From assembly GCF_030013595.1 (NCBI RefSeq), contig NZ_CP122768.1: a stretch of 64,000 bases of DNA; one strand, written 5' to 3'. This DNA comes from Escherichia coli. GTDB lineage: Bacteria > Pseudomonadota > Gammaproteobacteria > Enterobacterales > Enterobacteriaceae. A program made the position numbers and the translations under genes. The notes under the pieces were generated by a model. The model saw nothing but the letters and a program-made list of their open reading frames with translations. It was not told the DNA's origin and searched no databases. Below, piece by piece: positions 8,336-29,086 of the stretch. Each line of letters begins with the position of its first letter. Within the stretch, counting starts at the first letter, position 1.

Positions 8336-8399
8336 TCTCGGTTTCCAAAAACTGTTCGCCTGTTACCCGCTCTCTTTCAAGCAAGGGAAACGCAGATGT

Positions 8400-8828
8400 T
8401 TAGATAGGCTGCGTCATTAAACCAACCGATTTCACACCCGCACTATGTAACAAGTTCAGTGCTTTAATTATTTCATCGTAAGGCACATCTTTTGCGCCAC
8501 CGATCAGAAAGACCGTTTTCGGGTTGGCCTTGAAACGGCTGGACACTTCCGCCACCACCTGCTCTGGTGGTAAACGCTCCAGGCGATCTTTCTCAACCAC
8601 CACGGTGTACTGACCAATACCAGACACTTCAACAATCACTGGCGGATTATCGTTACTGCTCACCGCCTGTGATTCAGTAGCGTCTGGCAGATCGACCTCC
8701 ACGCTCTGGGTGATGATGGGCGCTGTCGCCATAAAGATCAGCAACAGCACCAGCAGTACGTCCAGCAACGGTACAATGTTGATTTCGGACTTGAGATCGC
8801 GACGACCTCGTCCACGCGCTCTGGCCAT
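8400..8828 (-). CDS. tolR: Tol-Pal system protein TolR
   Basis: 142 aa, ExbD/TolR family, single N-terminal TM. Confidence 0.95.
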   Translation of the reverse strand: MARARGRGRRDLKSEINIVPLLDVLLVLLLIFMATAPIITQSVEVDLPDATESQAVSSNDNPPVIVEVSGIGQYTVVVEKDRLERLPPEQVVAEVSSRFKANPKTVFLIGGAKDVPYDEIIKALNLLHSAGVKSVGLMTQPI

Positions 8829-8831
8829 GGC

Positions 8832-9925
<1,094 letters not shown>

Positions 9926-11650: not shown

Positions 11651-13219
11651 TTAGCGTGCCGGCTGAGTAGTCGTGGAAGACTGCTCAAAGTGATAGCGAC
11701 CGGTTTTCAGGCTGCTTGGGCCGAGGCGTGCAAACTTGAACATTAAGAACAATTCTGCCACCAGGAACAGGGTATACAGGCCGCAAATCAGCACCATTGA
11801 GAAGATGAGATCGCCTGCGGTCAGTGACGAGTTCGCCACAGCTGTCGGCAGCACTTCACCGATAGCCCACGGTTGGCGGCCATATTCAGCCACAAACCAG
11901 CCCGCTTCTACAGCAATCCACGGCAGCGGAATACCGTACAGCGCGGCGCGCAGCAGCCATTTTTTCTCGCCAATGCGGTTGCGGATGACACTCCAGAAAG
12001 AGAGCGCGATGATTGCCAGCAGCAGGAAGCCACACGCCACCATGATACGGAACGCGAAGTACAGCGGCGCTACACGCGGAATGGAGTCTTTGGTTGCCTG
12101 TTGAATCTGCGCTTCAGTCGCATCAGCCACGTTTGGCGTATAGCGTTTCAGCAGCAGACCGTAACCGAGGTCTTTCTTCATGCTATTGAACTGGTCACGA
12201 ACCGCCTGGTCGGTAGAACCAGAACGCAGTTGCTCGAGCAGAGAGTACGCCTTCATCCCGTTACGAATGCGTTCTTCATGCTGCACCATCAGTTCTTTCA
12301 GGCCGATAACTGGAGTATCCACGGAACGCGTTGCAATGATACCCAGCGCGTAAGGGATCTGGATCGCAAATTTGTTCGTCTCCTCTTCCTGATCAGGAAT
12401 GCCGAACAGAGTAAAGGCAGCAGGCGCAGGTTGCGTTTCCCACTCGGCTTCAATAGCAGCCAGTTTGGTTTTCTGCACGTCGCCCATTTCGTAACCAGAT
12501 TCATCACCCAGAACAATAACAGACAGAACGGCAGCCATACCGAAGCTGGCAGCGATAGCAAAGGAGCGTTTAGCGAAGGCGAAGTCACGACCTTTCAGCA
12601 TATACCATGCGCTGATACCGAGGATGAACATCGCGCCAGTCACATAACCAGACGCTACAGTGTGAACGAATTTCACCTGAGCAACCGGGTTAAGCACCAG
12701 CTCGGAGAAGCTCACCATCTCCATACGCATAGTTTCAAAGTTGAAATCAGACGCGATTGGGTTTTGCATCCAGCCGTTCGCAACCAGAATCCACAGTGCG
12801 GACAGGTTTGAACCGAGCGCCACCAGCCAGGTGACACACATATGCTGAACTTTACCCAGACGATCCCAACCGAAGAAGAACAGACCTACAAAGGTGGATT
12901 CGAGGAAGAAGGCCATTAGACCTTCGATTGCCAGCGGCGCACCGAAGATATCCCCTACATAGTGGGAATAGTAAGACCAGTTAGTCCCGAACTGGAACTC
13001 CATGGTCAGACCGGTAGCCACACCCAGAGCGAAGTTGATACCAAACAACTTGCCCCAGAACTTGGTCATATCTTTATAAATCTGTTTGCCGGAAAGGACG
13101 TAGACCGTTTCCATAATGGCCAGCAGGAACGCCATACCGAGCGTCAGTGGCACAAAAAGGAAGTGGTACATCGCGGTCAAGGCAAACTGTAAGCGCGACA
13201 GTTCGACTATATCTAACAT
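11651..13219 (-). CDS. cydA: cytochrome bd-I ubiquinol oxidase subunit I
   Basis: 522 aa from the second Met ([12 protein letters not shown]...); Q-loop region present. Confidence 0.96.
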
Positions 13220-13556
13220 CATGACTCCTTGCTCATCGCATGAAGACTCCGAGAGTGAACCCCGTTAGAAAGGGTCACACGCATGCCCCAATACAAAATT
13301 ATTTGCTCGCCTCTATCGTTGCCATTTCATCAAAAGAGGAAAAGACAATGATAAAAAAGTTACAAATATGTTAATGAATAAACCAAATTGATCCCGTAAT
13401 TATATTACGCCGCAAAATCCTTACAATAAACAGGTTTTTATTGAGCAAATTTGCATTTTTCGACAGTGATCAATTTATAGCGAAATTGTCACGATCTCAC
13501 CAATTTGATCTACGACAATTTATCGTGTTTTGCAGATTTTTTTCAAGAATTAAAAA

Positions 13557-13570
13557 TTGATTTATATCAA
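13557..13570. promoter_or_regulatory. FNR-consensus palindrome TTGAT-N4-ATCAA in the cydA upstream region
   Basis: perfect match to the FNR half-site palindrome about 340 bp upstream of the cydA start; cydAB is known to be FNR/ArcA regulated. Confidence 0.55.
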
Positions 13571-14024
13571 AATCAACCAAATATGTTAATTATGTATAAA
13601 CCATAGATCATTGGTAATTTTATTGTTAATTTATTGTGAAATATTTATGCAACACAATTATTACAATGAAAAAGTATAGATAAAAAACCAGTGTTTTATT
13701 TAACAGAACCGCCCTATCCACTTTTTATAATACCAATTGATTAGAGTAGCCAATTTGTTGCTATTTTACATAACATATTTTTATCAAAGTTAATTGATTG
13801 TTGCCTTTATGAGCACCGGCCGTAAGCCCGTTATGTTATTGTTTCATTAGTAATAATCACTTAAATGTATCGATGAAACAGGTATGACTTAGCGGGAGTG
13901 ATTGTTTCTGAGTGAACAGAGACCACTTTCGCCTGATAAATGAAAAATGAGCGATTTTTGCAAGTTAGTTTTTCTATAGCCGAGTACGCTCAGCGCCTCG
14001 CTTGATTACAATGAGGTTGCTGCT

Positions 14025-14969
14025 ATGAGTCCTGATAATATCAGTTCTGCTGTCAATCGCTTCTCAGGTTGGCCATCTAATGATCCTCTAAAAACAGATA
14101 AAGAATCAATGACATCACCCATGACTGTGCAGGTAATAAAGATGATTGCCGCCATCCTTGACCCACATCGGATAGTCGTTGGAATCGATACACTTTATAC
14201 AACGCAGCGCGAAACATTTACCTCAGAGAGTCAACAGCTCATTGAATCAGCATTGCAAACACTTCATGTGATGAATTTAAATAACCTGGAAACAAATCTC
14301 GATGAGGAAGGTCACTATCTGGCTTTTGGATATAACGTTGACACTCCTGACAGAATAACCGTTTCTGCTTATAATGAAAAAAAGCCTGGCTGCTATGGCC
14401 AATGTCTTTTAATACAGGATGACGAAACAGACTTATTTAACCTGATAAAAGTTAAAATTTTTGAAGCCAGGCATAATTATGTCGCTCAATTGATGAGCGA
14501 TCCGGAATTTATGTTCAAATTTAGTTATAGCGCTCAACAAAATAGATTAGAACCTCATCTTCTGGTTCCCACTTATTTCCCTCTAAAAACAAACGAACCG
14601 GTTACGCAAGAGGATGTACTGTTACTTTATCGTTTCTTTAAAATGGATGGTGATTTTAATATATTAACATCAGATGAATACATGAGTATCATGACACCTC
14701 TAATGAAGTGTGAGCGTAGCATCCACGACCACAACAGGTATGTGACGGGCAAAGATCCCCTTCTTCTGGACTATCCTCCTTCTGGTAACCAGATATATTT
14801 CCATATTTTTCCTGACGAATCAGCAACACTAGTCCTTTATTTTTCAAACAATGACATTGAATGTTTCGTCTTTGAAAGAGATATTCCGAGCCAGTATCGC
14901 TTTTTCAAAATGTTTACCAATCTGGCACTGGTTATTGATCAGTTAACCGATGCCAATCAAATACTTTAA
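14025..14969 (+). CDS. hypothetical protein, 314 aa, low GC, no recognisable domain
   Basis: clean ORF with a GAGG Shine-Dalgarno 8 nt upstream; polar Ser/Pro-rich N-terminus; no signal peptide or TM segment; AT-rich codon usage unlike flanking core genes. Confidence 0.7.
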   Translation: MSPDNISSAVNRFSGWPSNDPLKTDKESMTSPMTVQVIKMIAAILDPHRIVVGIDTLYTTQRETFTSESQQLIESALQTLHVMNLNNLETNLDEEGHYLAFGYNVDTPDRITVSAYNEKKPGCYGQCLLIQDDETDLFNLIKVKIFEARHNYVAQLMSDPEFMFKFSYSAQQNRLEPHLLVPTYFPLKTNEPVTQEDVLLLYRFFKMDGDFNILTSDEYMSIMTPLMKCERSIHDHNRYVTGKDPLLLDYPPSGNQIYFHIFPDESATLVLYFSNNDIECFVFERDIPSQYRFFKMFTNLALVIDQLTDANQIL

Positions 14970-15049
14970 TTTTTATATATTCCCTGTGGCAAATATTGCT
15001 AAACAATGCCCGGGGATTAATTTTTATTACTCACGGAAAGATTTAAATA

Positions 15050-15472
15050 ATGATCCCATCTCAAATCTCTTTCAACACCCTTCCTGTCAATGCAACATAC
15101 GCTTCAGAGACAACAGTTGACACACAAAAATTCTCTGACATCCTCTACTCAGCGGGGTGTTCCCTAAAGGATCTGGCTTATCTGAGCAGATGTCTGGCAT
15201 CAATACATCCGACTATCGCCAAAAACATTTATGAAACAGAAAATCTCAGCGATCAAAAATTACTACATATTGATTGCCGTAGTACAAATGAAATCAAGAT
15301 AAATATCTTTTTTGGTCAACAACGAGAAGGATTAATTGAAATTAGTTCTGACACAGTCATTTTTTCGATACTGTCTTCATTGATTGACTCCACCATTTCT
15401 AAATTTCAACACCAAAACCCCGTTAACGGTTCTGTAAATCCTGACCTATTGTATGAGGATTATACTGATTAA
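15050..15472 (+). CDS. hypothetical small acidic protein, 140 aa, low GC
   Basis: ORF 80 bp downstream of the 314-aa gene on the same strand; acidic composition, no TM; no family recognised. Confidence 0.6.
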   Translation: MIPSQISFNTLPVNATYASETTVDTQKFSDILYSAGCSLKDLAYLSRCLASIHPTIAKNIYETENLSDQKLLHIDCRSTNEIKINIFFGQQREGLIEISSDTVIFSILSSLIDSTISKFQHQNPVNGSVNPDLLYEDYTD

Positions 15473-16019
15473 ATCCCTCCTGTCGCGAAAAATGGCCTGC
15501 GTTATTGCCAGACGTAATAAAACTTTTGATTAACGTTTCTCGTACTGGTAGCACCTTCATGTACTTTTCTTTTTTACGAAAAATCAAAAGAGCTAACAAA
15601 GGTCATAATTCGCATGAATCATTAATTATTTGTTATTTTCAACATTATTTTTACATTAAGCAGAGATGAATTGCAGTGAAATTCGACTTAATTTTTATGA
15701 AATGCATTTACTCATGGCTAAAGCCACGTCACAAAAATGCAAATTAGAAGTTGATCACAATTATCTCAATACATCAAATCAAGTTAATTTTAAAAATTTA
15801 ACATTCATGACACTAGTTGACATAACACACTGAATTAAAATGAGAATTTGGAAACACACTTTAAACAATCATTTCCCGAAAGACATTTTGAAAATAGATC
15901 AATTGCAACATTACGGTCAGATAAAGACACTCCTGTGATATTAAACCTGTGCCGTTATGAACGGCCATAAATACGACGTGTGTAACTTATTTTACTCTCT
16001 GTCTTACAAAGGATTACCC

Positions 16020-16469
16020 ATGAAGAAAGCAACACTTGTGATTGGCGTTATTGGCGCGGACTGCCATGCAGTAGGCAATAAAGTTCTGGACCGCGTTTTT
16101 AGCAACCATGGCTTCAGAGTCATTAATCTGGGCGTAATGGTCAGCCAGGACGAATATATTGATGCTGCCATTGAAACTGGCGCTGACGCGATTGTCGTCT
16201 CCTCTATCTATGGGCATGGCGATATCGACTGTCTGGGCATGCGCGAACGCTGCATCGAGCGTGGACTGGGTGACATCCTGCTCTATGTGGGCGGTAACCT
16301 GGTGGTCGGAAAACATGACTTCGCTGACGTGGAAACCAAATTTAAAGAGATGGGATTTGATCGCGTCTTTGCCCCAAGTCATGACTTAGAAGATGTTTGT
16401 CAGCTGATGGCCCACGATATCAACCAACGTCATGACGTTGATACTCGCATTCTTGAAGAGGCAATCTGA
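16020..16469 (+). CDS. glmS: glutamate mutase sigma (S) subunit, cobalamin-binding
   Basis: start placed at [21 protein letters not shown] after an AAGGA Shine-Dalgarno; the D-x-H-x-x-G B12-binding motif (DCHAVG) is present; similar to clostridial MutS/GlmS. Confidence 0.9.
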
Positions 16470-17857
16470 TGCAAATCGTCTCTGTCGATATTGGATCGAC
16501 GTGGACCAAAGCAGCCCTCTTCGCCCGGGAGGGGGACGCGTTAACGTTGGTTAACCACGTACTGACCCCAACCACCACCCATCATCTGGCGAAGGGGTTT
16601 TTCTCCAGCCTGAACCTGGTGTTAAACGTAGATAATGCCCTCCCCCTGTTTAACAGCGGTGAGGTTACATTGAAGTATTCCTCCTCTGCCAAAGGTGGGC
16701 TGGCGGTTGCCGCAATGGGATTGGTGCCTTCTATCACCCTGGAAACCGCGAAAGTAACCGCTCACTCTGCGGGGGCTAAAATTGCGCAATATTACTCCTA
16801 CAAGCTGAACCGCCGTGATATCCAGGCACTGGAAGAAACGCAGCCCGATATTCTCTTGTTCACCGGCGGCACCGACGGCGGAGAAGAAAGCTACGGCCTG
16901 AATAACGCCCGTGTGCTGGCAGAATCCAAACTCGACTGCGCCATTATTTATGCCGGAAACCGGGATATTCAGGACGAAGTGCAGGAGATCCTAGGGCATA
17001 AAGACCTGACCATCGTCGACAACGTTCTGCCCGATCTTGACCATCCGAACCCTTTAGCCGCACGCCAGGCTATCTGCGACATATTCCTTAAACGCATCGT
17101 TAAAGGGAAAGGGCTGGATGTCGTTGTTGATAAAACAGGCGAAGAACCAATGCCGACACCATGGACGGTCTTTGAACTGGTTAAGGCAATCAGTAACGTC
17201 GATCACAGCTGGAAAGAGTTCATGCTGATCGACATGGGCGGCGCAACCACCGATGTCTATTCCGCCTGTGCCAACACGCTCTCGCCCGACACCGTTTTAC
17301 ACGGCGTACCGGAACCCTTCGTGAAACGGACGGTGGAAGGCGATCTGGGAATGCGCGTCTCGGCAATGGTGGTTGGTGAAAGTGCGAAAGAGTTAGTCAA
17401 TGTGAATTTTGCTCAGCAACCCGCACAGCTGGACGCTTTTTATCATTACCTCCGTCATCTAGTCGCTCATCCCGACTACTTACCCGCGAATGCAGAAGAA
17501 AAATATTTCGATACCGTCCTGGCCGGACTGTGTGTGGGTTATGCCACCGAAAGACATGCGGGCACCAAAAAAGAGGTCTGCACCTGCGTCGGCAATGTCG
17601 ATTTACAGATGGGACGTGACCTGACAACCGTGCGTAAAGTCGTCGGATCCGGCGGATGGCTCTCGCGTGCCAGTCAGTTCGATATGCATCACTGGTTGAA
17701 ATACCGCGAGTTAAACGACGACGGTAAACGCATTCTCTTACCGACCGAATTTGAATATTACCGCGATTCCCGGGGGCTATTACCACTGCTGGCAAACGTC
17801 GCCAGAGTCGATCCTCTGGCCGCCGCGCGCACCAGTATTCAATGCTTAACCCTATAA
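16469..17857 (+). CDS. glmL: glutamate mutase-associated protein L (MutL/GlmL, putative reactivase)
   Basis: 462-aa ORF between the S and E subunit genes, as in clostridial glutamate mutase operons. Confidence 0.85.
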   Translation: MQIVSVDIGSTWTKAALFAREGDALTLVNHVLTPTTTHHLAKGFFSSLNLVLNVDNALPLFNSGEVTLKYSSSAKGGLAVAAMGLVPSITLETAKVTAHSAGAKIAQYYSYKLNRRDIQALEETQPDILLFTGGTDGGEESYGLNNARVLAESKLDCAIIYAGNRDIQDEVQEILGHKDLTIVDNVLPDLDHPNPLAARQAICDIFLKRIVKGKGLDVVVDKTGEEPMPTPWTVFELVKAISNVDHSWKEFMLIDMGGATTDVYSACANTLSPDTVLHGVPEPFVKRTVEGDLGMRVSAMVVGESAKELVNVNFAQQPAQLDAFYHYLRHLVAHPDYLPANAEEKYFDTVLAGLCVGYATERHAGTKKEVCTCVGNVDLQMGRDLTTVRKVVGSGGWLSRASQFDMHHWLKYRELNDDGKRILLPTEFEYYRDSRGLLPLLANVARVDPLAAARTSIQCLTL

Positions 17858-17875
17858 CAATTAAGGCTGCAATCA

Positions 17876-19321
17876 ATGGAACTTCGAAATAAGAAATTAA
17901 CCCATGACGAATTCATGACCGAGCGGCAACAGGTACTGAAAACCTGGGAAACCGGCAAGGATGTTGAAAACTTTGAAGATGGCGTTAAATACCAACAAAC
18001 CATTCCTGAGCATAAACGCTTCTCTCTTGCGCTGTTGAAAGCAGACAAGGAAGGTAAAACCCTTAGCCAACCGCGCGCAGGTGTGGCGCTGATGGACGAA
18101 CACATCGAACTACTGAAAACACTACAAGAAGAGTGCGATCTGCTGCCGAGCACTATCGATGCATATACCCGTCTGAATCGGTACGAAGAAGCGGCTGTAG
18201 GGATTAAAAAATCCATCGAAGCCGGAACCTCTAAACTGAACGGTTTGCCGGTAGTTAACCATGGCGTCGCAGCTTGCCGTCGCCTCACCGAAACCCTGCA
18301 AAAACCGCTACAGATCCGCCACGGCACGCCAGATGCGCGTCTGCTGGCTGAAATCTCAATGGCCAGCGGCTTTACCAGTTATGAAGGCGGTGGCATTTCC
18401 TACAACATTCCGTATGCCAAACGCGTAACGCTGGAAAAATCGATCCGCGACTGGCAGTACTGCGACCGTTTAATGGGGATGTATGAAGAACACGGGATCC
18501 GCATCAACCGCGAACCGTTTGGCCCACTAACGGGTACGCTGATCCCGCCGTTTATCTCGCACTCTATCGCGATAATCGAAGGCTTGCTGGCGCTGGAACA
18601 GGGTGTGAAATCTATCACCGTTGGTTATGGACAGGTCGGCAGCCTGACGCAGGATGTTGCGGCGATCCAGTCTCTGCGTGAACTTGCACACGAATATTTT
18701 CAGAGCTATGGCTATACCGACTATGAATTAAGTACCGTGTTTCACCAGTGGATGGGCGGCTTTCCGGAAGACGAATCGAAAGCGTTCGCTATTATCTCCT
18801 GGGGCGCAGCCGTCGCGGGGATGTCTGGTGCCACCAAAGTCATCACCAAAAGTCCGCACGAAGCCTGGGGCATCCCGACTGCCGCTGCCAACATTCAGGG
18901 GCTGAAAGCCTCCCGCCAGATGCTCAACATGGTCAACGAGCAGAAATTCCCGCCGTGCCCTGCGGTTGAACTGGAAATTGAACTGATTAAGAGCGAGGTT
19001 CGCGCGGTACTGAATAAAGTGTTCGAACTGGGTAATGGTGATATTGCGCGCGGTACGGTGCTGGCATTTGAAGCGGGCGTACTGGATGTGCCGTTTGCGC
19101 CAGCCGCCTGCAACGCGGGCAAAATTCTTCCGGTCCGTGACAACACCGGCGCGATACGCGTACTGGAAGCCGGAGCCGTTCCATTGCCAAAAGATATTCT
19201 CGACCTCCACCACGATTACGTTGCTGAACGCGCACGCTTTGAAGGACGCCAACCGACATTCCAGATGGTTGTAGATGACATCAATGCTGTATCCCACAGT
19301 AAATTAATAGGAAGACCATAA
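17876..19321 (+). CDS. glmE: glutamate mutase epsilon (E) subunit
   Basis: 481 aa with strong collinear similarity to clostridial GlmE (e.g. PRAGVALxDEHIELL, REPFGPLTGTL, VFHQWMGGFP). Confidence 0.92.
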   Translation: MELRNKKLTHDEFMTERQQVLKTWETGKDVENFEDGVKYQQTIPEHKRFSLALLKADKEGKTLSQPRAGVALMDEHIELLKTLQEECDLLPSTIDAYTRLNRYEEAAVGIKKSIEAGTSKLNGLPVVNHGVAACRRLTETLQKPLQIRHGTPDARLLAEISMASGFTSYEGGGISYNIPYAKRVTLEKSIRDWQYCDRLMGMYEEHGIRINREPFGPLTGTLIPPFISHSIAIIEGLLALEQGVKSITVGYGQVGSLTQDVAAIQSLRELAHEYFQSYGYTDYELSTVFHQWMGGFPEDESKAFAIISWGAAVAGMSGATKVITKSPHEAWGIPTAAANIQGLKASRQMLNMVNEQKFPPCPAVELEIELIKSEVRAVLNKVFELGNGDIARGTVLAFEAGVLDVPFAPAACNAGKILPVRDNTGAIRVLEAGAVPLPKDILDLHHDYVAERARFEGRQPTFQMVVDDINAVSHSKLIGRP

Positions 19322-20562
19322 TGAAAATAAAACAGGCTCTGTTCACCGCTGGCTACTCCTCATTCTATTTCGATGACCAGCAGGCGATAAAAAACGGAGC
19401 GGGTCATGACGGCTTTTTTTATACCGGGGAGCCAGTAACACAGGGGTTTAACGCCGTACGTCAGGCCGGGGAGTGCGTATCGGTACAGTTGATTCTGGAA
19501 AACGGCGCGGTCGCCGTAGGTGACTGTGCTGCCGTACAGTATTCCGGGGCAGGTGGTCGCGATCCACTGTTCCTCGCAGAGCACTTTATTCCGTTCCTCA
19601 ACGACCATATCAAGCCATTACTGGTAGGCCGCGATGTGGATGCTTTCCTGCCGAATGCCCGTTTCTTCGACAAATTGCGTATTGACGGCAACTTGCTACA
19701 TACCGCCGTGCGCTACGGATTATCACAGGCGCTGCTTGATGCTACCGCGCTGGCAACCGGCCGTCTGAAAACTGAAGTAGTTTGCGATGAATGGCAGTTG
19801 CCACGCGTGGCGGAATCCATTCCATTATTTGGTCAGAGCGGTGACGATCGATATATCGCCGTCGATAAGATGATCCTTAAGGGCATCGACGTGCTGCCCC
19901 ATGCACTGATTAATAACGTCGAAGAGAAACTAGGCTTTAAAGGTGAAAAACTGCGCGAATATGTCCGCTGGCTGTCGGATCGTATTCTGAGCAAGCGCAC
20001 CAGCGCACGCTACCACCCTACCCTGCACATCGATGTATACGGCACTATCGGTCTGATCTTCGATATGGATCCGCTTCGCTGTGCGCAATACATCGCCAGC
20101 CTGGAAAAAGAAGCGCAAGGCCTGCCGCTCTACATTGAAGGGCCGGTCGATGCCGGTAACAAGCCCGATCAAATTCGCCTGCTGACCGCGATTACCAAAG
20201 AGCTGACGCGCCTCGGTTCCGGCGTGAAAATTGTGGCCGATGAATGGTGTAACACCTACCAGGATATTGTTGATTTTACTGATGCCGCCAGTTGCCACAT
20301 GGTGCAAATCAAAACCCCGGATCTGGGCAGTATTCACAACATCGTCGATGCGGTTCTTTACTGCAACAGCCACAGCATGGAAGCGTACCAGGGCGGCACC
20401 TGCAATGAAACTGATGTCAGTGCCTGCACCTGTGTCCACGTCGCCCTTGCCGCTCGCCCTATGCGTATGCTGGTAAAGCCAGGGATGGGCTTTGACGAAG
20501 GCCTCGATATCGTCTTCAACGAAATGAATCGTACTATCGCGCTGTTGCAGGCTAAGGATTAA
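19321..20562 (+). CDS. mal: 3-methylaspartate ammonia-lyase (beta-methylaspartase)
   Basis: 413 aa; enolase-superfamily MAL motifs (AVQYSGAGGRDPLF, HMVQIKTPDLG, KPGMG); overlaps glmE stop (TAATG). Confidence 0.93.
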   Translation: MKIKQALFTAGYSSFYFDDQQAIKNGAGHDGFFYTGEPVTQGFNAVRQAGECVSVQLILENGAVAVGDCAAVQYSGAGGRDPLFLAEHFIPFLNDHIKPLLVGRDVDAFLPNARFFDKLRIDGNLLHTAVRYGLSQALLDATALATGRLKTEVVCDEWQLPRVAESIPLFGQSGDDRYIAVDKMILKGIDVLPHALINNVEEKLGFKGEKLREYVRWLSDRILSKRTSARYHPTLHIDVYGTIGLIFDMDPLRCAQYIASLEKEAQGLPLYIEGPVDAGNKPDQIRLLTAITKELTRLGSGVKIVADEWCNTYQDIVDFTDAASCHMVQIKTPDLGSIHNIVDAVLYCNSHSMEAYQGGTCNETDVSACTCVHVALAARPMRMLVKPGMGFDEGLDIVFNEMNRTIALLQAKD

Positions 20563-20565
20563 CAA

Positions 20566-21936
20566 ATGGCTCGTTCTTTTAAAGTCTTATCGCCAACGGC
20601 AATCCTCGGGTATGGATTCCCGGAAGAGAGCTTCCGTAAAGCGATGGCAGAATCGCCCGATCTGATCGCCGTTGATGCAGGCTCTTCCGATCCTGGCCCC
20701 CACTACCTCGGGGCGGGCAAACCGTTTACCGATCGCGCAGGGGTCAAGCGCGATCTGCGCTATATGATCACCGCAGGCGTGCAAAATAATATACCGGTGG
20801 TGATCGGAACGGCTGGCGGTTCTGGTGCCGCACCACACCTGGAGTGGTGCCGAGAAATAATTCATGAGATTGCCCGGGAAGAGCACCTCTCGTTCTCGAT
20901 GGCGTTGATCCCGGCAGACGTTGACAAAGCCATCGTCCACCAGGCGCTGGATAACGGCAAAATCACGGCGCTGGATTTTGTCCCGCCGTTAACCCACGAC
21001 GCGATTGACGAAAGTACGTATATCGTCGCGCAAATGGGCATCGAACCCTTCCAGCAGGCGCTGAAAGAAGGCGCGCAAGTGGTGCTGGGCGGGCGCGCTT
21101 ACGACCCGGCCTGCTTTGCTGCGCTACCGATCATGCAAGGCTTTGATGAAGGTCTGGCGCTGCATTGTGGGAAAATCCTTGAATGCGCGGCAATCGCCGC
21201 AACGCCCGGCTCAGGCTCTGACTGGGCGATGGGCATCATTGATGACAACGGCTTTACGCTGAAGACATTTAATCCGAAGCGTAAATTTACCGAAACGTCA
21301 GCGGCTGCACACACACTGTATGAGAAATCCGATCCCTACTTCCTGCCAGGACCTGGCGGCGTGTTGAACCTGAAAGACTGCACATTTAAAGCGGTCAATG
21401 ACGGCGAAGTGTACGTCAGCGGTTCTAAGCATGAAGAAACGCCGTATGCCCTGAAACTGGAAGGTGCGCGACGAGTGGGCTTCCGCTGTCTGACCATCGC
21501 AGGAACGCGCGACCCGATCATGATCGCCGGGATCGATAAAATCATCGATGAAGTCAAAACCAGCGTTTCGCGTAACCTGTCGCTCGACGATGACAGCATT
21601 CACATCAATTTCCACCTGTACGGCAAAAACGGGGTGATGGGCGACCATGAACCGATGCAAACTGCCGGGCATGAGCTGGGGATTGTCCTTGATGTAGTTG
21701 CACCGACCCAGGAAATTGCCAATAGCGTTTGCTCGCTGGTGCGCTCTACCATGCTGCACTACGGCTATGAAAACCGCATCGCTACCGCAGGCAATCTGGC
21801 GTTCCCGTTCTCCCCTTCTGATATCCAGGGCGGGCCGGTATACGAATTTTCCATATATCACCTGATTGAAGCCAACGACGCTCTGCGTTTTGATTTCCAT
21901 ATTGAACAGGTGACGCCAGAAGGAGTTCAGGCATGA
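20566..21936 (+). CDS. DUF1446 (AtuA-like) family protein, function unknown
   Basis: 456-aa soluble ORF; family assignment from remembered N-terminal pattern, not verified. Confidence 0.6.
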   Translation: MARSFKVLSPTAILGYGFPEESFRKAMAESPDLIAVDAGSSDPGPHYLGAGKPFTDRAGVKRDLRYMITAGVQNNIPVVIGTAGGSGAAPHLEWCREIIHEIAREEHLSFSMALIPADVDKAIVHQALDNGKITALDFVPPLTHDAIDESTYIVAQMGIEPFQQALKEGAQVVLGGRAYDPACFAALPIMQGFDEGLALHCGKILECAAIAATPGSGSDWAMGIIDDNGFTLKTFNPKRKFTETSAAAHTLYEKSDPYFLPGPGGVLNLKDCTFKAVNDGEVYVSGSKHEETPYALKLEGARRVGFRCLTIAGTRDPIMIAGIDKIIDEVKTSVSRNLSLDDDSIHINFHLYGKNGVMGDHEPMQTAGHELGIVLDVVAPTQEIANSVCSLVRSTMLHYGYENRIATAGNLAFPFSPSDIQGGPVYEFSIYHLIEANDALRFDFHIEQVTPEGVQA

Positions 21937-22250
21937 AACAGTCAATTGTCTCACTGGCGCAAGTCATTCGTTCGAAAAATGCCGGACCTTACGAACTGGT
22001 TTTAGATATTTTATTTAAAACCAAAGAAAACTATGAGCGTGTCAAATCATCAGGGCAATTAACCCCAGAACTGATCGCGCGCTTATATCATGTTGAACCT
22101 GACTTTATTCATCGTATTGTCTGGTTTGATCCTTCTAACGCAGTAAAAATCGTCATGCCACGAGATATTATCTCCGGGAATGTAGGTGACAATGATGTCT
22201 ATGGTGCACAGCAACATGCACCTTTATTAAATATGAGTTTCGATTTGTAA
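21933..22250 (+). CDS. DUF4387-like small protein, function unknown
   Basis: 105-aa ORF translationally coupled (ATGA overlap) to the DUF1446-like gene; remembered SKNAGP and YGAQQH motifs. Confidence 0.55.
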   Translation: MKQSIVSLAQVIRSKNAGPYELVLDILFKTKENYERVKSSGQLTPELIARLYHVEPDFIHRIVWFDPSNAVKIVMPRDIISGNVGDNDVYGAQQHAPLLNMSFDL

Positions 22251-22333
22251 AAATCCGAATACTTTTAGCCAACTGACATCCCGTCACTTATTGCAGTTCA
22301 ACACTTCAGCTATTTGTAAGGTTGTAATAGCAG

Positions 22334-22375
22334 GTAGATGCCTGAATCTCTATTCAGGCATCTACTTCTCCTGAT
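22334..22375 (+). terminator. intrinsic terminator or attenuator hairpin (14-bp perfect stem GTAGATGCCTGAAT / ATTCAGGCATCTAC)
   Basis: perfect inverted repeat with CTCT loop followed by a T-rich tract, between the DUF4387-like gene and the transporter. Confidence 0.6.
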
Positions 22376-22410
22376 TCTGATTTATCGCCGCGCACCTGAT
22401 GGAGGAAAAA

Positions 22411-23691
22411 ATGAAGAAAATAAGTTTAACCACGATGATTCTTTTGGCGCTGGTACTTGGAATGATTATCGGCGTAGTGCTCAATAACACTGCTTCACCG
22501 GAAACCGCAAAACTCTATGCGCAAGAAATATCGATATTCACGACGATTTTCTTACGACTGATAAAAATGATTATCGCTCCGTTAGTGGTCTCTACCCTGG
22601 TGGTAGGTATAGCTAAAATGGGCGATGCCAAAGCCCTTGGTCGTATTTTTTCTAAAACACTCTTTTTATTTATTTGCGCCTCATTGCTGTCAATTGCCTT
22701 AGGCTTGATAACAGTAAATTTCTTCATGCCAGGCACAGGAATTAATTTTGTTGCACACGGAGCCGAAACCACCGGAGTGGTCGCGTCAGAACCCTTTACG
22801 CTAAAAGTATTTATTTCGCATGCTTTCCCCACCAGCATTGTCGATGCCATGGCGCACAATGAAATTTTGCAAATCGTGGTGTTCTCAATTTTCCTCGGCT
22901 GTAGCCTGACGGCGATTGGCGAGAAAGCCAGCGCCATCGTTCACGCCTTAGATTCGCTGGCACATGCCATGTTAAAGCTCACTGGCTACGTCATGCTCTT
23001 CGCTCCCCTGACCGTATTCGCTGCTATTTCAGCATTGATTGCTGAACGAGGACTGGCAGTTATGGTGAGCGCCGGGATCTTTATGGGTGAATTTTATTTC
23101 ACCATGTTATTACTTTGGGTGCTGCTTATCGGTCTGGCCATCGTTTATGTTGGCCCCTGCATCAGACGCCTGACCCGCGCCCTTTCGGAACCCGCCCTGC
23201 TGGCATTTACCACATCCAGTTCTGAAGCGGCTTTTCCAGGAACGCTTGAAAAACTGGAGCAATTTGGCGTTTCCCCCAAAATTGCCAGCTTTGTCTTACC
23301 CATTGGCTACTCATTTAATCTCGTTGGATCAATGGCCTACTGCTCCTTCGCCACAGTTTTCATCGCCCAGGCCTGCAATATCCATTTATCCATCGGTGAG
23401 CAAATCACCATGCTGTTGATCCTGATGTTGACCTCGAAAGGAATGGCTGGCGTACCACGCGCCTCAATGGTGGTTATCGCCGCCACGCTCAACCAGTTCA
23501 ATATTCCGGAAGCGGGGCTGATCTTGCTGATGGGCGTTGATCCGTTCCTTGATATGGGGCGTTCCGCGACAAACGTCATGAGCAACGCAATGGGCGCTGC
23601 GATGGTGAGTCGGTGGGAAGGCGAACATTTCGGCGAGGGCTGTCGGGGTAAAGCATTAAAACCCAATGAATCGAACGTTGCTCTGCCCTGA
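22411..23691 (+). CDS. dicarboxylate/amino acid:cation symporter (DAACS family, GltP/DctA-like)
   Basis: about 426-aa polytopic membrane ORF; start chosen at MKKISL after a GGAGG Shine-Dalgarno; substrate unknown. Confidence 0.8.
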   Translation: MKKISLTTMILLALVLGMIIGVVLNNTASPETAKLYAQEISIFTTIFLRLIKMIIAPLVVSTLVVGIAKMGDAKALGRIFSKTLFLFICASLLSIALGLITVNFFMPGTGINFVAHGAETTGVVASEPFTLKVFISHAFPTSIVDAMAHNEILQIVVFSIFLGCSLTAIGEKASAIVHALDSLAHAMLKLTGYVMLFAPLTVFAAISALIAERGLAVMVSAGIFMGEFYFTMLLLWVLLIGLAIVYVGPCIRRLTRALSEPALLAFTTSSSEAAFPGTLEKLEQFGVSPKIASFVLPIGYSFNLVGSMAYCSFATVFIAQACNIHLSIGEQITMLLILMLTSKGMAGVPRASMVVIAATLNQFNIPEAGLILLMGVDPFLDMGRSATNVMSNAMGAAMVSRWEGEHFGEGCRGKALKPNESNVALP

Positions 23692-23798
23692 GGGGGATCT
23701 TAAGCAATCAGAAGCCAATGACTACGCATTTTTATAAGCCGGATCATGAAGTTAGACGGCAATTAAGTAACACTAACGTTTAAGGTGAAAAGTGAAAT

Positions 23799-25451
23799 AT
23801 GTCAAAACCATTTATCTGGCAAGAACCGTTTCTACAAAATAAAGACGGTACAGAATATACATTAATTAGCGATCAGCATATTACAGTAACGGAATTAGAC
23901 GGCGAAGAAGTGATAAAAATCGCTCCTGAAGCATTAACGCTGCTTGCCCGGCAGGCATTTTATGAAGCCTCTTTTTTCTTACGTTCCGCTCATTTGCAAC
24001 AGGTCGCCAGCATTCTTAACGATCCGCAGGCCAGTAGTAATGATAAATACGTTGCGTTGCAGTTATTACGTAATGCTGAAGTCTCAGCAAAAGGGGTATT
24101 ACCCAACTGTCAGGATACCGGCACCGCAACTATTGTTGCCAGTAAAGGGCAACAGATATGGACGGGAGGTAACGACGCTGAAGCCTTAAGCAAAGGCATT
24201 TACAGTACTTTCCAGGAAAATAATCTGCGCTTTTCACAAAATGCGCCGCTGGATATGTATACCGAAGTCAATACGCAAACCAATCTCCCGGCGCAGATTG
24301 ATATCAGCGCTGTCGCTGGTAATGAGTACCATTTTCTCTGTGTTAATAAAGGGGGCGGCTCCGCCAATAAAGCCGCACTTTATCAGGAAACCAAATCCTT
24401 ATTGCAACCAGAAAAACTGACCGCATTTTTAATCGAAAAAATGAAATCGCTGGGCACCGCTGCCTGCCCGCCTTACCACATCGCCTTTGTCGTCGGAGGG
24501 CTTTCAGCCGATCAAACCTTAAAAGTTGCCAAGCTGGCCTCAACGAAATATTACGACAATTTGCCCACCAGCGGAAACGAGCAAGGACAAGCATTCCGTG
24601 ATATTGAGCTGGAAAAAGTGTTGCTCGAGGCCAGTCAGCAATTTGGTATTGGTGCGCAATTTGGAGGTAAATATTTCGCTCATGATATTCGCGTCATTCG
24701 TCTGCCGCGTCACGGTGGCTCCTGCCCGATAGCTATGGCGCTCTCCTGTTCTGCCGATCGCAATATCAAAGCAAAAATTAACAAGCACGGTATCTGGCTG
24801 GAAAAACTCGAACACAATCCGGGGCAATATATTCCAGCCTCACTGCGGGAAGAAAATCACGCGCAACATGTACAGCTGGATCTAAACCGTCCGTTGCGTG
24901 ACGTGATGCAGGATCTCGCCAGATTACCGGTAGGTACCCGCGTGTCGTTAAGTGGTCCCATCGTAGTGGCGCGCGATATCGCCCACGCCAAAATAAAAGC
25001 GCGGCTGGATAGCGGCGAACCGATGCCGGATTACCTGAAGCATCATATTGTCTATTACGCTGGCCCGGCGAAAACACCGGAGAACATGGCCTGCGGTTCA
25101 CTAGGTCCAACCACGGGCGGTCGAATGGACGGTTATGTCGATACCTTCCAGGCTGCTGGCGGCAGTCTGGTAATGTTATCGAAAGGTAACCGCAGCCAGC
25201 AGGTCACCGATGCCTGTCACAAACATGGCGGCTTCAATCTGGGAAGTATTGGCGGTGCAGCTGCGTTACTGGCGCAAGAATATGTCAAAAGTCTGCGTTG
25301 CCTGGAATACCCGGAGCTGGGTATGGAAGCGGTGTGGATGATGGAAGTGGAAAATCTGCCCGCATTCATCCTGGTAGATGATAAAGGCAATAATTTCTTT
25401 AGTCAGTTTGAGCAGCAACACCGCTGCGCCAGTTGCCCTGCGGGACATTAA
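23799..25451 (+). CDS. fumD: class I (Fe-S) fumarate hydratase paralogue, mesaconase/fumarase FumD-type
   Basis: 550 aa, FumA/FumB-like; clustered with glutamate mutase and mal as described for FumD of E. coli O157:H7. Confidence 0.85.
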
Positions 25452-25460
25452 GGAAAATGA

Positions 25461-26063
25461 ATGGAAGCGCGAATTTCAACTGAACGGCATGTGCAGCGCC
25501 AGCAGAAATTGAAGGAACAGGTCGATACGCGCATCGCGGCGGCGATAGAGAAAAAAGGGATTTTGATTGTTTTCACCGGCAATGGCAAAGGGAAATCCAC
25601 TGCCGCGTTTGGTACTGTGACGCGCGCGGTGGGTCATGGCAAAACGGTGGGGGTTGCGCAGTACATCAAGGGGCAATGGGACAACGGCGAATACAACCTT
25701 CTCCAGCCGCTGGGGGTTGAGTTTCATATTATGGGAACCGGTTTTACCTGGGAGACACAGAACCGGCAAGCGGATATCGACGCGGCGAAAGAGGTCTGGT
25801 CGGAAAGCAAACGGATGCTGGCTGACAAGCGTTACGACTTAGTGGTGCTTGATGAGCTGACCTATATGCTGGCTTACCATTATCTGGATACCGAAGAAGT
25901 GATCGCTTCTCTGCAAAACCGCCCGGCACAACAAAGTGTCATTGTCACCGGACGCGGTTGCCACAGTCAGATATTAAAAATGGCGGATACGGTCAGCGAA
26001 ATCCGCCCCGTCAAACATGCTTTTGATAACGGCATTCAGGCCCAGCCGGGTATCGACTGGTAA
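25461..26063 (+). CDS. cob(I)alamin adenosyltransferase (BtuR/CobA paralogue)
   Basis: 200 aa with P-loop GNGKGKSTAAFG and collinear similarity to BtuR; would supply adenosylcobalamin to glutamate mutase. Confidence 0.88.
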   Translation: MEARISTERHVQRQQKLKEQVDTRIAAAIEKKGILIVFTGNGKGKSTAAFGTVTRAVGHGKTVGVAQYIKGQWDNGEYNLLQPLGVEFHIMGTGFTWETQNRQADIDAAKEVWSESKRMLADKRYDLVVLDELTYMLAYHYLDTEEVIASLQNRPAQQSVIVTGRGCHSQILKMADTVSEIRPVKHAFDNGIQAQPGIDW

Positions 26064-26066
26064 TAA

Positions 26067-26098
26067 CTGCGCCTGGCATCCCGCCAGGCGCAGGTTTT
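26067..26098. terminator. bidirectional terminator hairpin between convergent genes
   Basis: 11-bp inverted repeat CTGCGCCTGGC / GCCAGGCGCAG followed by GTTTT. Confidence 0.6.
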
Positions 26099-27002
26099 AC
26101 ATCTCCTGCGGTACAACCGATTTCGCCAGCAACCATTCACGAAATTGCTGCAAGTGCGGTGAGTCAGACTTCTCTTCCTGCCACGTCATAATAAAACGAT
26201 TACCGGTACGAATAGGCACATCACAGGGGATCACCATATCGCCACTATCCAAATCATGTTGAATAGCGAACCGTGGTAACAGCGCCACGCCGAGATTCGA
26301 GCGCACGGCGGCAATCAGCATTGAAAGCAAATCGAAACGTGGTCCGTTGTTGACCAGCGGACTGCTAACGCCAGATAAGGCAAACCACTCTTCCCAGCCA
26401 GTAATACGGGTACTTTGATGCAGAAGTGGTAACTCTGTAAGCAGTTCTGCCACTGACAGTTTTTGATCGGACATTGCAAGCAAACTGCCGCTGCATACCG
26501 GCAAAATCTCCTCATAAAAGAGATATTCTACTTCCGCCCAGGGCGCGCAAAAATTTTCGCGCATAATGACAGCATCGTACTCCCGATTAAGAAAATCGCC
26601 GTTATTAGCTAAAGAGTGAATATTAACAATAATATCGGGATGTAACTTTGTGAATTCATGTAAATTTGGGATTAACCAGTGAGTACTAAACGTAGGATTA
26701 ACGGCAAGTTCAATAACCTGAACCGTAGGCTGCCAGGTCATAATGGTATTGGTATCGCGTTCCAGCTTATTTAATGTTTCTTTTACTATCCCCAGGTAAT
26801 ACTTCCCTGCATCATTAAGAAAAATGCGTTTTTTAGAGTGTGAAAATAACGGAGTATGTAAAAATTCCTCCAGCGCACTTACTTGTCTGAATACAGCACT
26901 TTGGGTTAACGCTAACTCCTCTGCCGCTCTGGTATAGCTTTCATGACGTGCGACGACCTCAAAAGTCACCAGCTGCTCCGTTTTAGGTATTTTTCCTCGC
27001 AT
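26097..27002 (-). CDS. LysR-family transcriptional regulator
   Basis: N-terminal HTH (TFEVVARHESYTRAAEELALTQSAVFRQVSALEE) and LysR substrate-binding domain; start chosen at MRGKIP; divergent from the RtcB-like gene. Confidence 0.85.
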   Translation of the reverse strand: MRGKIPKTEQLVTFEVVARHESYTRAAEELALTQSAVFRQVSALEEFLHTPLFSHSKKRIFLNDAGKYYLGIVKETLNKLERDTNTIMTWQPTVQVIELAVNPTFSTHWLIPNLHEFTKLHPDIIVNIHSLANNGDFLNREYDAVIMRENFCAPWAEVEYLFYEEILPVCSGSLLAMSDQKLSVAELLTELPLLHQSTRITGWEEWFALSGVSSPLVNNGPRFDLLSMLIAAVRSNLGVALLPRFAIQHDLDSGDMVIPCDVPIRTGNRFIMTWQEEKSDSPHLQQFREWLLAKSVVPQEM

Positions 27003-27591
27003 AATGCCGTCCGTGAAAAAATAACAATTCAAAAATTATTTTATAAAAAACAGTAGCACTAATGAATATCATAATTCAAATAAACAAACCAGTCAGCTAT
27101 ATGTCTAACCAGGAAAATAAAGTGACAATAATCCTAAAACAGGAATTTCACCTCAGTTATCCGCATGCAATACTTTAAAGCTATTATTGCAAGAATATTA
27201 TTCATATACATGAATATACTCTAAATAAGTCAAGTTGCAGGAAGGGAACAAATAATGAATTTCCAGAAGCTTACATAAGTAAGTGACCTGGGTGAGCGAA
27301 CATCGATGCAGCACATGCAACTTGAATTATGACAAGTATACAATGATAAATTTATATACCCTATGTTATATATTATCTATGTCCGGTTAAATTGAATGAG
27401 TCATGGCCTTAAAAGACTTCACAAAAGATAATTCCTCTTTAACAATAAGCCAGATTTACCACTTGTAAAACTTGCTATCGCCACATACACTACGCGCGTT
27501 TTCTTTCCCTTTTGCTGGCTGCTGACCGGAAAGACAAAATTACCCTCGCAATACAGGGGGTTGTTTAACGTCTATATTTCAGGACAGCGTT

Positions 27592-28989
27592 ATGCATCAT
27601 CTTTCAAGGCTTGATAAAGCCTTTCTGCGCAAAGGGATCCAACTTTCCCGCGCCAACAATATTGTTTCATTATCTCGTCCATCAGGTGCCAGTGCCCGCG
27701 TACTGCTGCCGGACGAACTGCCGCTGGAAGAAAAAGCAGTAACACAACTGCTTGATTTTGCAGAAGTGAAGCTACCAGACCACCCAGGTTATGTGCGCCA
27801 GACGTGCGCGACGCCAGATTTTCATCCCGGCAATGGAGTCCCCGTTGGCGCGGTGGTGGCCTCAACGCCGGATTTAGTCATTCCCGCCGCCATCGGCACC
27901 GATATTTCTTGTGGCATGCGGCTGCTGACGACCGGATTAACACTTGAGCAAGCCGAAGCGCATAAAGACGTCATCGCTCAGCGGTTAACGCAAGTGCTAC
28001 TGCAAAATGAGCGCGATGTTCCGTTATCCGCACAGGCGTTCACCGCGCTTTTTGATGGCGGACCGGCAGATTGCGTGTCGACCTTGCCATCAGCAGGTCT
28101 CTGGACACGCACGAATATCCCCCGAATGGTACAAGAGATTGACCGCTGCATTGGGCTTAACGAGCATAACAGTCATTCGCGTTATGCCCCACCCGCCCTG
28201 CTGGCAACGGACCGCGCATTACTCCGCGATCCTTGTCTGGGTACGCCGGGTTCAGGTAATCATTTTATTGAACTTCAGGTCGTTGATAGCGTGGTTGATC
28301 GCCATGTAGCCTGGCAACAAGGGCTGAAAACAGGCGATATTGTGGTGATGATCCACAGTGGATCGCGAGATGTTGGCTTTTACGTCGGAAGACGCTGGAT
28401 GGATCGCGCCCGTGCTGAATGGCCCACCGGACATAAACATCCACAAAGCGGGTTATATGGTCTGGCAGGCGGACTGGCGGAGGAATATCTACAAGCGATA
28501 GGAATGGCGGCGCGTTACGCGTGGTTAAATCGCGTCACAATTGCCGAAATGGTGCGCGTATGTCTCGCCAATCTCTTTCATCAGGACAATTCGCATCTGG
28601 TGGTGGATGTGCCGCATAACATCATCCTTCGCGAGCATGAAATGAATATTCATCGCAAAGGTGCAACACCGGCACGAGTGGGCGATCTGGCATTAATCCC
28701 CGGTTCAATGGGCGATTATTCGTGGCTTGCAGTCGGTTGCGGCAACCCGGAGTGGCTGTGGTCATGCAGTCACGGAGCAGGACGCAGCCAGCGTCGACAG
28801 GCCATGCGCTCAAGCGCGACTGAAGAGTCAACGCTGCCGTGGCAATGCGTCACATTGCGTGAAGAACGACGTCTTGAAGAAGCGCCAGCGGCTTATAAAG
28901 ATATTGGTCCGGTTATCGAAGCCCAACAAGAAGCCGGATTAATTCAGCCAGCGGTCAGATTTCGACCGTGGTTAACGTTTAAGGCATAA
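27592..28989 (+). CDS. RtcB-family RNA 3'-phosphate ligase paralogue with N-terminal extension
   Basis: 465 aa; RtcB motifs PDFHPGNG, IPAAIGTDISCGM, GSGNHFIEL, MIHSGSRDVG, HN, IPGSMG, CSHGAGR, AYKDI; no rtcA/rtcR nearby. Confidence 0.85.
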   Translation: MHHLSRLDKAFLRKGIQLSRANNIVSLSRPSGASARVLLPDELPLEEKAVTQLLDFAEVKLPDHPGYVRQTCATPDFHPGNGVPVGAVVASTPDLVIPAAIGTDISCGMRLLTTGLTLEQAEAHKDVIAQRLTQVLLQNERDVPLSAQAFTALFDGGPADCVSTLPSAGLWTRTNIPRMVQEIDRCIGLNEHNSHSRYAPPALLATDRALLRDPCLGTPGSGNHFIELQVVDSVVDRHVAWQQGLKTGDIVVMIHSGSRDVGFYVGRRWMDRARAEWPTGHKHPQSGLYGLAGGLAEEYLQAIGMAARYAWLNRVTIAEMVRVCLANLFHQDNSHLVVDVPHNIILREHEMNIHRKGATPARVGDLALIPGSMGDYSWLAVGCGNPEWLWSCSHGAGRSQRRQAMRSSATEESTLPWQCVTLREERRLEEAPAAYKDIGPVIEAQQEAGLIQPAVRFRPWLTFKA

Positions 28990-29086
28990 AAAAGGCCATC
29001 ATACGATGGCCAACCATGTCGAAACCGACAGCCCTTCGCCATTCCTGTAGAGGGAAGCGGCGAGGGCTATTTCTTATTACAGATAT
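28990..29086 (-). ncRNA. sdhX: SdhX (RybD)-type 3'UTR-derived sRNA region with intrinsic terminator
   Basis: position immediately 3' of sucD with terminator GGCCATCGTATGATGGCC-TTTT on the minus strand; assignment by position and memory of SdhX, exact ends uncertain. Confidence 0.5.

Follow-up and report, generated by a model that had tools for sequence, protein, structure and literature searches.

The analysed window is a stretch of 64,000 nucleotides of Escherichia coli DNA (assembly GCF_030013595.1, contig NZ_CP122768.1). Between cydA and glmS it contains two co-oriented open reading frames (ORFs), referred to here as orfA and orfB. An earlier description made from the letters alone (the sequence-only reading) reported ORFs of 314 and 140 amino acids (aa) separated by 80 bp, and both the ORF list and RefSeq agree with it: the coding sequences annotated at this position, taken from a genome with 100% identity over 13300-16100, are exactly these two. 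The GC content of the pair is 0.34-0.42 (about 38%), lower than that of cydA and the glm genes (0.50-0.58), and the surroundings are AT-rich (GC 0.26-0.37 over 13300-14050 and 0.27-0.33 over 15400-16000), again as described. In our opinion orfA and orfB are probably genus-restricted orphan genes; they occupy the cydA-proximal edge of the cydA-sucD interval, a variable chromosomal spot. Features of the locus are listed in Table 1.

Table 1. Features of the orfA-orfB locus; positions refer to the window (SD, Shine-Dalgarno)
Feature	Position	Strand	Length or location	Basis or detail
orfA	14025..14969	+	314 aa, ATG start	six-frame ORF list; RefSeq WP_064225409.1 'hypothetical protein'
orfB	15050..15472	+	140 aa, ATG start	six-frame ORF list; RefSeq WP_000613115.1 'hypothetical protein'
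Pair-specific 5' leader of orfA	13861..14024	+		SD-like GAGG 14013-14016, 8 nt 5' of ATG
Spacer orfA-orfB	14970..15049	+	80 bp	weak SD-like GGAAAG at 15035-15040
cydA upstream (control) region, AT-rich	13223..13860	.		GC 0.26-0.39
Spacer orfB-glmS, AT-rich	15473..16019	.	547 bp	GC 0.27-0.33
cydA	11651..13219/13222	-	left neighbour of pair	
glmS	16020..16469		right neighbour of pair	
cydA-sucD interval	13223..29086			variable spot
RtcB-family (RNA ligase) gene	27592..28989	+	sucD end of island, after ~590-bp gap	

As a control for chance ORFs, positions 13861-15999 were subjected to 1000 mononucleotide shuffles and the longest ATG-initiated ORF was recorded in each. Its mean length was 65 aa; 0.3% of shuffles contained one of at least 140 aa, and no shuffle attained 314 aa. 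Both natural frames are intact and identical in length in nine of nine sampled E. coli alleles, which share 90-100% of their nucleotides. E. albertii carries an orfA ortholog, also 314 aa long, with 65% amino acid identity and no indels, which is intact in many strains; the pair region as a whole is 81% identical to that of E. coli at the nucleotide level, with a synonymous divergence (dS) of 0.5 in orfA. For orfA, the ratio of nonsynonymous to synonymous divergence (dN/dS, method of Nei-Gojobori) amounts to 0.37 when a divergent E. coli allele is compared and to 0.43 with E. albertii; the pairwise value of orfB is 0.41 and its median within E. coli 0.22. Two controls were used: the same alignments read out of frame yielded 0.56-1.19, and cydA yielded 0.006. 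Because the ORFs are long in comparison with shuffled DNA, their alleles are intact, the orfA frame is shared with E. albertii and dN/dS lies below the off-frame values, orfA and orfB are genuine genes, moderately constrained by purifying selection.

Constraint on orfA is uneven. Codons 32-100 have a dN/dS of 0.15, compared with about 0.5 elsewhere, and this segment may carry the constrained function of the protein. Codons 1-31 (14025-14117) behave differently: against E. albertii their dS is 0.13, whereas the remainder of the gene has 0.47-0.66, and they have a dN/dS of about 1, both values resting on only 12 differences. The low dS at the 5' end could reflect constraint at the nucleotide level, whether from translation initiation, from a regulatory site or from an antisense transcript. 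In E. albertii, the start of orfA is overlapped by an antisense ORF of 89 aa. Adaptive evolution was also considered and rejected; the McDonald-Kreitman table (nonsynonymous and synonymous polymorphisms, Pn 65 and Ps 43; corresponding fixed differences, Dn 110 and Ds 53) was not significant (p=0.24) and bears no sign of an arms race.

Neither protein could be assigned to a family, which is what the sequence-only reading had anticipated. Searches of Pfam returned nothing significant (lowest independent E: orfA 0.14, orfB 9.2), and the same applies to NCBIfam, PADLOC, PHROGs and PDB sequence profiles; at E<=1, PADLOC-DB gave 0 families for either protein. A word-indexed search of 5.8 billion clusters matched only Escherichia/Shigella entries, all labelled 'hypothetical protein', and an exhaustive HMMER search with an orfA profile against 1.84 billion representative proteins retrieved 14 matches, all of them short pieces of orfA. 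Among 100,044 genomes, one per bacterial species, orfA was found only in E. albertii, in Escherichia sp. MOD1-EC7003 and on two contigs of metagenome-assembled genomes. The latter (JAIJJM010000209.1, Collinsella sp., L006; DXKH01000067.1, Citrobacter sp., L007) carry orfA sequences 100% and 98% identical to E. coli, respectively, and are almost certainly mis-binned E. coli DNA. Neither gene thus has a detectable homolog beyond Escherichia/Shigella, and these database comparisons show orfA and orfB as apparent taxonomically restricted orphan genes of Escherichia with no known domain. The AlphaFold (AF2) models are of low confidence (predicted local distance difference test, pLDDT, 46 for orfA, low throughout its length, and 40 for orfB) and no fold can be assigned from them. 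Foldseek template modelling scores for orfB were at most 0.26, the query being its low-confidence model.

No transmembrane segment is present in either protein (maximum Kyte-Doolittle 19-mer 1.25 and 1.52), and the polar N-terminus noticed in the 314-aa protein is confirmed, 12 of its first 25 residues being S, T, N, P or Q. The first 19 residues of orfB are free of charge and rich in the same amino acids. Ranked by the content of these residues in the first 25 positions, orfB is first and orfA second, among just 42 local coding sequences, of which about four, situated in the first 10 kb, have N-termini garbled through misplaced coordinates. Residues Cys127, Cys229, His48, His150, His234 and His260 of orfA are kept between E. 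coli and E. albertii; no catalytic-site family matching them was found. The designation of the 140-aa protein as a small acidic partner holds as far as its isoelectric point (pI 4.65) is concerned, but does not set it apart, since the 314-aa protein is acidic to the same degree (pI 4.69).

Intact orfB was found only in sequences labelled E. coli, and a truncated form of 103 aa is labelled Shigella dysenteriae. Among intact alleles the C-terminal YEDYTD is invariant. In the 160-aa frameshift forms P0010 and P0014 (the latter comprising 105 sequences), the change falls in 15430-15472, and the last ~12 residues including YEDYTD are swapped for an alternative end of 32 residues. Weak resemblance between the two proteins (BLASTP 35% over 43 aa, E=1.8, plus similar predicted topologies) hinted at common descent. 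Paralogy of orfB with the C-terminal half of orfA, as well as an internal repeat in orfA, was nevertheless discarded, hhalign giving 1.1% probability and Smith-Waterman scores staying at the level of shuffled sequences (p 0.2-0.8).

Several points weigh against regarding the pair as maintained orphan genes. A dN/dS of about 0.4 signifies relaxed constraint. Decay events comprise a frameshift affecting the type strain of E. albertii and insertions of the insertion sequences (IS) IS903B and IS4 in two E. coli, and C-terminal frameshift variants of orfB occur in more than 100 sequences. Since relaxed dN/dS coincides with recurrent decay, some of the population may carry non-functional copies. The exhaustive HMMER search covered orfA only, the orphan status of orfB being derived from the word-index search, tblastn and profile libraries. 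That orfA acts by binding rather than by a recognisable enzymatic activity is a guess. The IS903B and IS4-family elements disrupt the pair in single strains, NZ_CP139196.1 (H57) and NZ_CP182371.1 (H70).

Expression data bear on the same question. The pair is essentially silent across 11 culture conditions, and so is glmS. The locus is thus both AT-rich relative to the genome and silent in standard culture, as expected of a silenced locus; the combination of 62% AT with silence fits silencing by nucleoid proteins of the H-NS type, in which case the locus would come on only in a hitherto unsampled niche. The same silence, however, also suits the idea that orfA and orfB are functionless relics, ancestral ORFs drifting to pseudogenes whose frames stay open by chance or through weak unrelated selection. 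This idea gains from the dN/dS of about 0.4, from the IS insertions and C-terminal frameshifts, from recurrent decay in E. albertii NBRC 107761, MOD1-EC7003 and Shigella dysenteriae (the 103-aa fragment), and from the loss of the locus from about 79% of E. coli. It has to cope, on the other hand, with a 945-nt frame of 38% GC that has remained open and indel-free over 19% nucleotide divergence in two species, with nine diverse E. coli alleles that are all intact, with the low ratio at orfA codons 32-100 and with in-frame dN/dS clearly below the off-frame controls. Frame conservation over a dS of 0.5 outweighs the relic explanation, which we regard as unlikely.

Next, we consider distribution of the pair and its neighbourhood. 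Among 5426 complete E. coli genomes, 1135 contain the pair and 1131 contain glmE, an almost perfect co-inheritance. Carriers include O157:H7, O145:H28 and many human, poultry, livestock and wastewater isolates. The lowest nucleotide identity among E. coli copies is 90% for the pair and 95% for glmE. No remnants of the pair were seen in pair-less E. coli. Outside this species the association breaks down in both directions. E. albertii possesses orfA but none of the glm genes, while its orfB is reduced to a 23-codon stub and a fragment matching residues 30-60. In Escherichia sp. MOD1-EC7003 the glm cluster is intact, orfA has several frameshifts and an inserted repeat, and the first 93 codons of orfB are missing. 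Two copies of this repeat lie in opposite orientation at ~8350-8470 and 9090-9220 of the MOD1-EC7003 locus (L009), where they break up decayed orfA and take the place of the 5' half of orfB. They appear to resemble the enterobacterial ERIC/IRU (enterobacterial repetitive intergenic consensus/intergenic repeat unit) element.

The enterobacterial glm cluster has been defined as glmS-glmL-glmE-mal-DUF1446-DUF4387-gltP-fumD-cobA-LTTR, the last being a LysR-type transcriptional regulator, and reported in Enterobacteriaceae including Klebsiella, Citrobacter, Salmonella and E. fergusonii (Kronen and Berg 2015, PMC4682846); orfA and orfB do not figure in this definition. Co-occurrence with glmE in E. 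coli, together with the position of the pair between the cydA control region and glmS, could nevertheless mean that the two proteins have an accessory or regulatory role, either in the glutamate (methylaspartate) fermentation island or in expressing cydAB. Yet orfA has no relative outside Escherichia, though the cluster is known from other genera (PMC4682846), and E. albertii and MOD1-EC7003 separate the two in opposite ways. Moreover, no DNA-binding or cofactor domain was found with Pfam, and cydAB functions in most E. coli although they lack the pair. We therefore hold an accessory function of this kind to be extremely improbable, and a role in the glm pathway was rejected on distribution, the pair and the cluster not co-occurring across cluster-bearing taxa. 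The pair is shown to co-occur with the glm island in E. coli and yet to stand outside that pathway.

Between cydA and sucD lies a replacement hotspot, with contents that differ between lineages. In the source genome it contains orfA, orfB and a glutamate-fermentation island of ~13 kb that extends up to the RtcB-family gene adjoining sucD; this gene stands alone, with neither rtcA nor rtcR annotated near it. K-12-type genomes (L016) have mngB/mngA in the interval instead, a second pair-less E. coli type (FDAARGOS_1255, L003), presumably B2-like in phylogroup, has a TPR-repeat pseudogene, and E. albertii (L002) has orfA together with a gene for a 258-aa protein resembling outer membrane proteins. 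No integrase, IS or transfer RNA gene was found at the borders of the interval.

The AT-rich flanks had been taken as a mark of horizontal acquisition. However, positions 13300-13860 are matched in 5418 of the 5426 genomes, with or without the pair. Because the left flank (to ~13860) is conserved also in pair-less E. coli, it is no such mark; it is conserved core regulatory DNA of cydA and not a scar of an island. Homology in pair-less genomes ends at 13860 (L003) or at ~13595 (K-12-like L016). The leader of orfA which follows is co-linear with E. albertii at 81% identity and absent from pair-less genomes. On the other side, the spacer between orfB and glmS is kept wherever the glm cluster occurs and presumably holds the glm operon promoter. 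A cobalamin riboswitch or another RNA element in the AT-rich spacers was considered and dismissed, Rfam at E<=1 returning nothing relevant; the 547-bp leader of this coenzyme-B12-dependent glutamate mutase operon is thus devoid of a cobalamin riboswitch at that threshold. A promoter scan detected no consensus sigma-70 promoter on the + strand 5' of orfA, counts of candidate sites being no higher than in shuffled DNA, and a terminator scan detected no terminator-like hairpin between orfA and orfB. An operon defined by promoter and terminator was dropped on the former ground.

The cassette as a whole had likewise been thought horizontally acquired, a view that is not supported. No relatives of either protein were found among IMG/VR viral contigs, nor in a phage collection with orfB as query. 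In PLSDB only three records match the pair (NZ_CP134663.1, NZ_CP141089.1 and CP088669.1), all typed non-mobilizable; two of them, of ~4.9 Mb, are evidently mislabelled chromosomes, and CP088669.1 has 730 kb. With no relatives in phages (orfB as query), true plasmids or viral contigs and with one constant chromosomal position, a mobile origin of the pair was rejected. Since the pair region is common to E. coli and E. albertii at 81% nucleotide identity, comparison of the two species indicates that the pair is older than their split and does not look like a recent import. In the simplest history, orfA and orfB would have stood beside cydA in the common ancestor of both species, the glm island would then have joined distal to them, and later the whole interval would have been replaced in most E. 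coli lineages while orfB was lost in E. albertii. On this scheme orfA is the older and more persistent unit of the two.

The state of the locus in E. albertii also decides how the two genes relate to each other. The pair had been likened to toxin/immunity, effector/chaperone and antiphage modules, with routine separation of the two genes in other genomes named as a refuting observation, and such separation is seen: orfA is intact in many E. albertii strains, with orfB lost but for the stub and fragment, so they are kept together neither as an effector with its chaperone nor as a toxin with its antidote. Because E. albertii keeps orfA intact without orfB, obligate toxin/antidote coupling is excluded, and the two genes are shown not to be an obligate couple of this type.

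A two-gene conflict system (toxin/antitoxin, toxin/immunity, antiphage or abortive infection), in which orfA would be the effector and orfB a neutraliser or sensor, would account for the arrangement of a large gene and, 80 bp further on, a small acidic one with no terminator between them, for low GC and proteins without family, and for divergence faster than that of the neighbours (the 90% against 95% given above). Nevertheless, no toxin, antitoxin or immunity domain was recognized in Pfam, NCBIfam, PADLOC or PDB sequences, and neither a PADLOC match at E<=1 nor a nuclease, NTPase, TIR or SIR2 domain. An orfA that is intact and under purifying selection in the absence of orfB is incompatible with a toxin dependent on orfB. 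The neighbours are metabolic (cydABX, glm) and not defensive, the pair resides in no defence island or mobile element, with no phage, plasmid or viral copies, and the McDonald-Kreitman test shows no excess of adaptive substitutions. Near-silence in culture also counts against a conflict system, toxin/antitoxin and defence genes being usually expressed constitutively. Taken together, we judge such a system highly improbable.

Substrates of type III secretion typically carry a polar N-terminal signal rich in Ser, Thr, Pro and Asn with few charges, and class I type III chaperones (CesT/SycE-type) are small, acidic, dimeric alpha/beta proteins. The polar N-termini of both proteins and their top ranks among 42 local genes (a small background, ~4 of its N-termini garbled) would suit orfA, perhaps also orfB, as a substrate of the locus of enterocyte effacement (LEE) or of E. 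coli type III secretion system 2 (ETT2), or orfB as a class I chaperone for orfA. Against this, no chaperone or effector family of type III secretion appears in Pfam even at an independent E<=10; orfB is no obligatory chaperone, as E. albertii does without it; the locus lies outside any prophage or effector island; and orfA equals orfB in acidity. Many carriers from human, poultry and wastewater sources presumably lack the LEE, which we also count against it. A connection with type III secretion is, on balance, very unlikely.

Returning to orphan genes of Escherichia as the favoured explanation, orfA would be the primary functional unit, a predicted soluble alpha/beta protein, and orfB an accessory gene of E. 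coli and its closest relatives that can be lost. A bolder version, to which we give only a slight chance, is that orfA, maybe jointly with orfB, is the founding member of a new family that goes back to the ancestor of the E. coli/E. albertii clade and serves interaction with a host or competitors; for example, a substrate of LEE or ETT2 type III secretion with the polar N-termini as secretion signals, expressed only in the gut.

The interpretation given by the sequence-only reading is, overall, partly supported. The layout of a large and a small acidic protein in AT-rich DNA yields here no evidence for a toxin/immunity, effector/chaperone or defence module, and without experiments the pair is not a priority in that capacity. 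Present in about one fifth of complete E. coli genomes and selectively maintained, it is a legitimate target for functional work, for which gut colonisation, microaerobic physiology and secretion are suggested as settings. No described family accommodates these proteins, yet AT-rich ORFs that lack a family and vary between strains are a well-known category in E. coli. What is unusual here is the length of orfA, its age, predating E. coli, and its clear selective maintenance; there is no pointer to a new kind of system.

Comparison with known systems leads to the same placement. Type II toxin/antitoxin, polymorphic toxin/immunity and two-gene antiphage systems resemble the pair in having adjacent co-oriented large and small genes, low GC and variable presence among strains; unlike systems represented in PADLOC and DefenseFinder, however, the pair matches no model, contains no enzymatic domain, has no mobile or defence-island context, is separable in nature, shows no adaptive signature and is transcribed near zero. 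CesT/SycE-like chaperone/effector pairs share with it the juxtaposition of a larger protein and a small acidic one (~140 aa, predicted alpha/beta), polar N-termini of both, and carriers that include LEE-positive lineages; they differ in that orfA and orfB match no such profile, orfA is acidic too and persists in E. albertii, where orfB is lost, and the locus is outside any type III secretion or effector island. The glm cluster directly adjoins the pair and is inherited together with it in E. coli, yet orfA occurs without the cluster and the cluster without a functional pair. The closest likeness is to orphan genes of E. coli O-islands, among them many ORFs for hypothetical proteins on islands peculiar to strains EDL933/Sakai, which are also confined to one genus, AT-rich, family-less and poorly expressed in culture, occupy variable chromosomal spots and evolve under relaxed purifying selection. 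From these, orfA differs by its unusual length (314 aa), by being older than the species and by having no link to a prophage or IS.

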